A DNA stretch of 64,000 bases from Anolis carolinensis (Eukaryota): assembly GCF_035594765.1 (NCBI RefSeq), contig NW_026943823.1, positions 11,036,001 to 11,100,000 on the forward strand. The letters run 5' to 3'. The notes under the pieces were generated by a model that saw only the letters and a list, made by a program, of their open reading frames with translations, had not been told where the DNA came from and searched no databases. Below, one piece after another: positions 13,194 to 13,904 of the stretch; the stretch's first letter is position 1; each line of letters opens with the position of its first letter. The position numbers and the translations under genes are program-made.

Positions 13194-13904
13194 TGTCGCA
13201 CCTCAGAATAGTTCACCTTGCTATAGACACCCAGTCACACACGGGAGAAAGTCTTTTGTAGTTTTATTGAGCCAACGCAGATATAAATCAAAGCAGGCAG
13301 TAAAAAAGTCAATAGAAATCCAATAGTTCATAAGCCATAATAATCCACAAGTCCATTAGCCAAAACAGTAAACGATAGATCCCAAAGAACAAAGGCCCAA
13401 AGGTTTCAAAGATCCAGGAACAGAAATCTTCTCTTGGCATGAAGCAGAAACATCCACTCAGATGAAGCAAGAATTTGCTTTGACAAAAATCTATTTCCAA
13501 ACACACACTTTTAAAAGCACCCCAGAAATGCATTTCTCTTTCCTGTGGAGGCCTCTCTCTTCCCCGCCAATCTCACACTCCTACGAGGCTGAACTCCCTT
13601 CCATAACAACTGATTCACCCTAGATAATTCAAGGTCCTCGTTATCTTGCACCTGAACCGGGGCTGAAGACATCTCTTGCTCATTAATTCCCATGGGAATG
13701 TCATTCTGGCTGTTATCTATGGCCTGTGGAGTCAACAGTTCATTCTGCTCAAGCTGCATTTCTCGAGCCTCTAAATCAGCCTGTATTATTCCCATGCCAT
13801 CCTCCTGAAATTCATCCTGCATCCCATCATCTAGCTCTTGTATCTGAAATGCAGAATCCCCTTCCTCATCCTCACTCTGACTATGCTGTGGCTGAGTCAC
13901 AACA
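13194..13904 (-). mobile_element. Solo LTR (711 bp, Gypsy-like) with an ORF-containing U3
   Basis: Minus strand TGTTGTGACTCAGC...GTGCGACA; perfect 5-bp TSD GATGC (13189-13193, 13905-13909); minus-strand AATAAA ~13263-13268. Confidence 0.88.
13511..13903 (-). CDS. LTR U3-encoded acidic ORF (open from LTR base 2, ~130 codons) ending in a PRRSVRLA motif
   Basis: VVTQPQHSQSEDEEGDSAFQ...QPRRSVRLAGKR; the stop overlaps a TTTTAAAA TATA-like box; no ATG at the start of the frame. Confidence 0.45.
   Translation of the reverse strand, partial: VVTQPQHSQSEDEEGDSAFQIQELDDGMQDEFQEDGMGIIQADLEAREMQLEQNELLTPQAIDNSQNDIPMGINEQEMSSAPVQVQDNEDLELSRVNQLLWKGVQPRRSVRLAGKREASTGKRNAFLGCF

Follow-up and report, generated by a model that had tools for sequence, protein, structure and literature searches.

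The acidic open frame carried by a solo LTR of the Anolis carolinensis genome is very probably the C-terminal tail of a Pol/integrase, which in full-length relatives is encoded by a pol frame running through the PPT into the 3' LTR. Taken as a whole, the evidence favors an integrase tail that was read into the 3' LTR and carries RRSxR[LI] as a predicted anchor on the nucleosome acidic patch, the solo copy being probably a silent relic of it. The features are listed below for the window, by which the whole 64-kb stretch of DNA that was analysed is meant.

13194..13904, minus strand: solo LTR of 711 nt, TGTTGTG...GCGACA, assigned to a Tf1/sushi-type Gypsy chromovirus family
13189..13193, plus strand: left TSD copy GATGC, exact match to the right copy
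13905..13909, plus strand: right TSD copy GATGC, exact match to the left copy
13511..13903, minus strand: frame of 130 codons plus stop, putative relic of an integrase C-terminal tail, from pol read-through into the 3' LTR
13634..13903, minus strand: acidic linker, codons 1-90, likely disordered judging from composition; dN/dS 0.59, near the non-coding control
13514..13633, minus strand: conserved basic end of the frame, 40 codons long; dN/dS 0.15 in comparisons of distant copies
13568..13585, minus strand: RRSVRL, HMGN/Dsup/Dot5-like motif, with R111 as the predicted arginine anchor
13509..13516, minus strand: TATA-like TTTTAAAA, overlapping the stop codon, LTR nt 389-396, putative promoter element
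13474..13484, minus strand: predicted R start and self-priming target, LTR nt 421-431, counterpart of the PBS-pairing stretch in full-length relatives
13263..13268, minus strand: AATAAA polyadenylation signal, LTR nt 637

The solo LTR and its open frame

The element at 13194-13904 displays the TG...CA ends, flanking TSD, lack of an internal domain and multi-copy occurrence that characterize a solo LTR. The initial annotation had recognized a minus-strand LTR with a perfect GATGC TSD, and exact copies indeed lie at 13189-13193 and 13905-13909; its coordinates, 13511..13903, delimit the coding half alone, the whole LTR being 13194-13904. The family is large, with 1587 first-look candidates genome-wide, 40 of which were scored and found to be 89-96% identical. 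An exact TSD was present in 20 of the 30 family loci fetched, and no preference for GATGC-like sites was discerned by eye among 30 family loci, though both LTRs of the window have such TSDs. The insertion site (window 13143-13193) is the end of an older dispersed repeat of family D14. Rearranged copies were also encountered, one in which the first 78 LTR bases are repeated in tandem (L019/L156) and one with two LTR starts near each other in inverted orientation (L139).

The frame opens at LTR base 2 and its TAA stop falls inside the TATA-like TTTTAAAA, so that the annotated open frame from base 2 to the TATA-like box is recovered as 130 codons. Its E/D/Q-rich character was likewise evident, with 25 D/E against 2 K/R in residues 1-95 and 17 Q overall, and the last 35 residues contain 8 K/R. 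Within the span 13565-13588, where an HMGN-like motif had been placed, RRSVRL was located at 13568-13585, and no other RRSxR[LI] occurs when all six frames of the window are read. Read with its flank as RRSVRLAG, it carries V at position 4 and AG instead of SA, and the spacing of R1, R2, S3 and R5 together with the hydrophobic residue 6 of the HMGN-like motif is present.

Conservation across family copies, which had been proposed as a check, was borne out, as RRSxR[LI] is kept in 44 of 58 distinct copies; the frame itself is open in 30 of them, frameshifted in 12 and interrupted by a stop in 16. When 41 loci chosen solely by the LTR start were inspected for the looser pattern [RK][RK][ST]xR[LIV], it was found in the forward frame of 13 and the reverse frame of none, with 0.87 expected from shuffles. 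The occurrence of RRSxR[LI] in this LTR family is beyond chance. A Pfam search of the LTR frame (P0001) disclosed no HMGN domain, and its matches to Binary_toxB_2 (19.4 bits) and Ribosomal_S13 (14.2 bits) were below cut-off and were dismissed as compositional noise. Membership of the HMGN protein family was also rejected, since the core reads RRSVRLAG rather than RRSARLSA and the frame is part of pol.

The window holds another solo LTR (10560-11659, plus strand) of a different family, with the TSD GATGC/GACGC. Several host genes are present as well, namely a GBBH-like (TMLHE-like) N-terminal exon at 37827-38330, an intronless rhodopsin-family GPCR at 50320-51447, an intronless F8A/HAP40-like gene at 55061-56155 and DKC1-like exons at 62100-62396.

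Continuity with pol in full-length relatives

The assignment of the frame is carried by the junctions between chromodomain, PPT and LTR, 17 of 23 of which are in frame with LTR base 2, where one third would be expected by chance; split by type, the in-frame share is 5 of 9 for junctions at a window-type LTR and 12 of 14 for those of group B, and the other 6 of the 23 are out of frame. The 23 junctions were located among 30 loci taken from 40 DNA-search matches, the query being one of two decayed elements found by a pattern of PPT plus LTR start, both of which have pol upstream and one a clear chromodomain. Read-through also occurs in L201, one of the remaining 7 of the 30 loci, which lie outside the junction count; two loci, L205 and L206, are near-duplicates of each other. 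The pol extension into the 3' LTR amounts to 83-153 codons, and the full-length order in one pol frame is integrase core, SH3, chromodomain, PPT, acidic linker, motif and stop. The U3 frame of the initial annotation thus keeps its place in U3 and loses its standing as a gene of its own.

The relatives L181/L209, L185/L211, L193 and L183/L213 link the window LTR to internal domains. The most informative, L209, has a 665-aa frame with Integrase_H2C2, rve, SH3_Tf2-1 and Chromo, whose C-terminus, RRSARLARK...GKRNAFLGCF, shares the end GKRNAFLGCF with the window frame; the two align end to end with 34% identity (E 2e-20), and the locus also possesses paired LTRs 95.9% identical plus a gag frame. 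The Chromo match (PF00385) is above cut-off in L211 (E 4e-7) and L215 (E 7e-8) and below it in L209 (E 6e-4). Pol also reads through in L193, whose first 19 LTR bases are identical to those of the window LTR. Nearest in DNA is L183/L213, 70% identical over LTR 17-711, with integrase and chromodomain directly upstream and without a PPT junction.

Genome searches revealed no full-length element of the window LTR's own subfamily, so read-through in that subfamily is inferred from the relatives. Nine purines followed by the exact window LTR start gave 0 matches genome-wide, and the LTR end plus GA, the PBS of the other family, gave 24, none with internal domains of the window LTR family. The LTR end plus PBS was matched 5 times genome-wide, and no integrase match was detected in L254, which lies behind the fifth. 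A search through the SH3_Tf2-1 family was abandoned as a route to full-length relatives, as it was dominated by one young unrelated family.

On domain order, chromodomain and self-priming PBS in its relatives, the window LTR family fits the Tf1/Sushi chromoviruses, whose features were drawn from the consulted sections of PMC6317226. The RT-RH-IN order is seen in one frame in L215 and in broken frames in L171 and L209, all of them relatives and not of the window subfamily. A chromodomain lies at the integrase C-terminus of the relatives, exceeding the PF00385 cut-off in L211 and L215. The self-priming PBS consists of a 10-nt pairing with the LTR about 30 nt past the TATA-like box in L249, L250 and L251, being found in 3 of the 5 PBS loci, with nothing credible in the other 2. 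The likeness to this V-clade thus comprises gag followed by PR-RT-RH-IN, SH3_Tf2-1 plus chromodomain, the self-priming PBS, a TG..CA LTR and a 5-nt TSD, and the difference is that pol here goes on into the 3' LTR, where an HMGN-like motif forms its end. Close homologues carry source labels as Anolis carolinensis Gypsy proteins. The chromodomains of P0002 and P0003 read EEFEV...W.G[YF], with the three aromatic cage residues of a group I chromodomain, a class that binds H3K9me, which we take to map to the HP1 cage, and the relatives' chromodomain is for that reason likely to be a methyl-lysine reader.

In an integrase tree of 12 proteins without named reference elements, the squamate elements form one clade (98/98), within which the window LTR family pairs with group B (72% identical; 88/93, not starred). 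Between the two LTRs of the window, DNA similarity does not reach significance (best E 0.33), and the identity of their integrases is 47%. The earlier notion of sister LTR families is therefore loose, holding at the level of the squamate clade, and group B is a nearer relative than the other window LTR.

Selection on the tail and the predicted nucleosome contact

Selection was assessed on 54 full-length LTR copies of the window family through 450 pairs under 85% identity, which share ancestry, as do those of the group B set. The last 40 codons gave dS 1.19 and dN 0.18, a ratio of 0.15, against 0.78 and 1.69 in shifted frames, 0.59-1.14 in post-stop DNA and 0.59 in the linker. In eleven disjoint pairs, differences reached 0.40 at third positions versus 0.22 and 0.16 elsewhere in the codon, with a flat post-stop control (0.21/0.17/0.20). 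For ten group B elements, picked for open frames, dN/dS was 0.29 in the tail, 0.15 in the motif and 0.12 in the chromodomain, with controls at 0.75-1.26. The solo copies, which were picked by likeness to the window LTR, gave nearest-neighbour pairs closer to neutral (tail dN/dS 0.52 vs 0.34 in distant pairs). Such codon-position and dN/dS contrasts suggest that selection very likely kept the tail at the protein level in active lineages, mostly at its basic end, and that the solo copies decay.

The motif itself bears the marks of this constraint. The alignment of ten tails, in which the linkers scarcely match, has 7 invariant columns, and these include the R, S, R and A of the motif, whose arginines swap between CGN and AGR codons. 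All 9 distant copies retain S, R5, L and A, and R1 and R2 persist in 5 of the 9 each. The relatives read RRSARIAA (group B) and RRSARLAR (L209), to be compared with RRSARLSA of HMGN and RRSARIAT of Dot5. According to the consulted portion of PMC12487698, cryo-EM places the fifth residue of Dsup RRSSRL and HMGN2 RRSAR as the anchor on H2A E61/D90/E92, and the portion of PMC13347269 consulted reports that R1, R2 and R5 of yeast Dot5 RRSARIAT are all needed in EMSA.

A complex prediction with window residues 93-124 and Anolis H2A/H2B gave a score of 0.72, against 0.02 for the best of three controls, and the mark applied was reached by 51 of 78 solved pairs and 2 of 108 mismatched pairs in a calibration made on complexes other than peptides. 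The runs share at least 70% of contacts with a partner pLDDT of at least 62, and the predicted contacts are limited to residues 106-112 and 115-116 of the 32-mer. They comprise R107-H2B Q47, R108-H2A E64, S109-H2A E61/E64 and R111-H2A E61 (mature numbering), a pose that places the motif, in the register of Dsup, on the acidic patch of H2A-H2B. The score may reflect memory of solved HMGN-, Dsup- or LANA-type complexes, and AlphaFold 3 is stated to mis-orient HMGN2 in the consulted portion of PMC12487698. Because like complexes have been solved and the tool was calibrated on non-peptide pairs, the prediction speaks for likeness rather than for binding. On the sum of conservation and modelling, the tail motif probably anchors on the H2A-H2B acidic patch. 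The HMGN-like docking tail of the initial annotation is accordingly upheld as to conservation, codon-level selection and predicted structure, and is reassigned as to its owner, which is very probably the integrase C-terminus downstream of the chromodomain.

Outside Anolis carolinensis the motif is patchy and is not required by all relatives. Of 150 profile hits, 2 contain the strict form RRSxR[LIV], against 0.2 expected; these are an Anolis carolinensis protein and P0121. The motif is absent from P0160, which is 75% identical to P0121 over the query. P0121, an ENA protein, represents the shortest version, in which the chromodomain is followed by the junction, 8 residues, RRSARIAAR and the end. 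The tails of worm-lizard, viper and rattlesnake proteins (P0018, P0047 and P0110) consist of chromodomain, PPT-like junction, acidic linker and other basic end motifs.

Given these 2 of 150 strict motifs and the R1/R2 variation, the motif is not obligatory and an import or DNA-binding role is conceivable, from which arises the strongest competing account, namely that the frame is an integrase tail whose basic motif acts as a signal for nuclear localisation, as a patch that binds DNA or as a site of kinase regulation. The differing basic clusters that end P0018, P0047 and P0110, together with a PRGRP motif, presumably AT-hook-like, after the chromodomain in some more distant chromodomain hits, imply that any basic patch might do, and the variation of R1 and R2 among distant copies agrees with that. 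A generic basic patch, however, needs neither S3, R5 nor a hydrophobic residue 6, all of which are kept across families despite synonymous change; moreover, the spacing equals that of the tested HMGN, Dsup and Dot5 motifs, and the predicted contacts are confined to the motif in the Dsup register. This account is hence rated unlikely beside an acidic-patch anchor.

Fate of the solo copy and comparison with known systems

The frame occupies LTR nt 2-391, with the TATA-like box at 389 and the self-priming target at 421, and since the pairing site sets the R start near LTR nt 421, it lies wholly in U3. It would consequently be present in the full-length RNA via the 3' LTR, and a solo LTR's own promoter would not transcribe it. 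Lying upstream of its own start site without an upstream gene, the frame is not expected to be expressed from the element. Since transcription is predicted to start downstream of the frame and 28 of 58 copies carry a stop or frameshift, the solo copy is likely a silent relic; the 5 genome-wide matches to LTR end plus PBS, against 1587 first-look LTR candidates, are in keeping with that. Contigs of 4 presumed RNA runs, of 24 listed, pile on repeats and are not assignable to the solo copy.

That the U3 frame is a separate accessory gene in the manner of MMTV sag or HIV nef, or that solo copies are expressed and used by the host, is very improbable. The open frame in 30 of 58 copies, the in-frame ATGs at codons 28, 37, 49, 71 and 78, and the predicted host gene model P0030, which ends in a group B tail, would accord with such a role. 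Against it, full-length elements have the frame as an extension of pol, it lies upstream of the predicted start site, nearly half of the copies are broken and nearest-neighbour pairs approach neutrality; besides, no longer homologue of P0001 was found in a weak search against longer proteins. A stand-alone U3 accessory ORF was rejected on the continuity with pol and the position relative to that start, though a spliced transcript of its own is conceivable. P0030 carries its group B LTR tail with an intact RRSARI and possibly represents an exonised solo LTR. Part of the tail-end conservation may act at the DNA level, because the tail end overlaps the promoter, but a motif that is a mere by-product of promoter constraint beside the TATA box in a frame open by chance is highly doubtful, since, although the TATA-like box follows some 50-70 nt after it and later codons overlap the promoter, the third-position excess and the dN/dS of 0.15 occur in one frame only with dS above 1, and the arginine codons alternate between CGN and AGR.

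With the integrase-tail reading, a mechanism can be proposed. The pol frame would extend past the chromodomain and PPT into the 3' LTR, as it does in the relatives and presumably did in the window subfamily, and the motif region appears to have been kept by protein-level selection in active lineages. R107/R108 are predicted to sit at the H2B Q47/H2A E64 edge and R111 to insert at H2A E61, as in Dsup and HMGN2. The long flexible acidic linker may let anchor and chromodomain hold nucleosomes together, and this two-point tether of the intasome to chromatin would shape insertion sites. LTR-LTR recombination would then have left the solo copy at 13194-13904, whose frame, without an upstream gene, would make no protein from the element.

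Other squamate elements end differently. The pol of L051, a full-length relative of the 10560-11659 LTR, is 1210 aa long and continues past the PPT in the base-2 frame of the 3' LTR; no Pfam chromodomain match was found in it, and its 138-aa tail holds DEDSFEGF without RRSxR. DEDSFEGF, which we take to resemble the acidic FxGF motif bound by LEDGF/TFIIS N-terminal domains, occurs in 18 of 19 copies of that family, the remaining one having DGDSFEGF. A young Gypsy family (L109-L138; G000, PF24626 hits) has single gag-pol frames of about 1596-1601 aa in which integrase ends before the PPT; a stretch resembling a splice acceptor lies just upstream of the PPT, and the short LTR holds an apparent decayed remnant of the FxGF-family tail. 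It is tentatively conceived that U3 of squamate chromoviruses might be an exchangeable integrase targeting cassette, bearing a chromodomain with an HMGN-type anchor, an acidic FxGF in a lineage that lost its chromodomain, or other basic motifs.

Among known systems, plant CRM group A has a targeting domain encoded in the 3' LTR; its coding region is described as reaching into that LTR, where it specifies a targeting motif (PMC3059260). There the CR motif, a plant, centromere-directed module, replaces the chromodomain, whereas the present tail follows a retained chromodomain as a short linear motif after an acidic linker, a distinction drawn by description, and CRM group A membership was rejected because the chromodomain is present upstream rather than replaced by a CR motif. 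The chromatin-binding site of foamy virus Gag and MLV p12 resemble the predicted situation in using the H2A-H2B acidic patch to tether the integration complex (PMC12336834); these are Gag products, and the anchor here would be in integrase, chromodomain-paired and LTR-encoded. With HMGN, Dsup and Dot5 the tail shares R-R-S-x-R-[LI], with RRSARLA and RRSARIA in relatives and predicted contacts in the Dsup register, differing in that the motif is on a retroelement enzyme without other HMGN domains.

Full-text searches of the open literature yielded no report of an HMGN-like motif in a retrotransposon integrase. The consulted portion of PMC12786077 does not describe an RRSxR motif of a retrotransposon integrase, and the terms ORF and open reading frame are absent from that of PMC3601003. 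No paper on pol running into the 3' LTR with an HMGN-like end was found either, and Repbase/Dfam entries may already record the read-through.

Chromatin finding by vertebrate Gypsy elements has been little studied, and a six-residue, directly testable candidate tether is offered here. The HMGN-like motif, described in HMGN, Dsup and Dot5, would gain a retroelement enzyme as a carrier, and plant CRM elements, with their targeting domain encoded in the 3' LTR, would have an animal parallel. Should the cassette reading be true, it would provide the first case of a retrotransposon integrase equipped with an HMGN-like anchor, and nucleosome-binding tails, ready for capture by host genes, would be dispersed by solo LTRs. 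For the Anolis carolinensis genome, it means that open acidic frames in solo LTRs are very probably integrase tails and not new genes.
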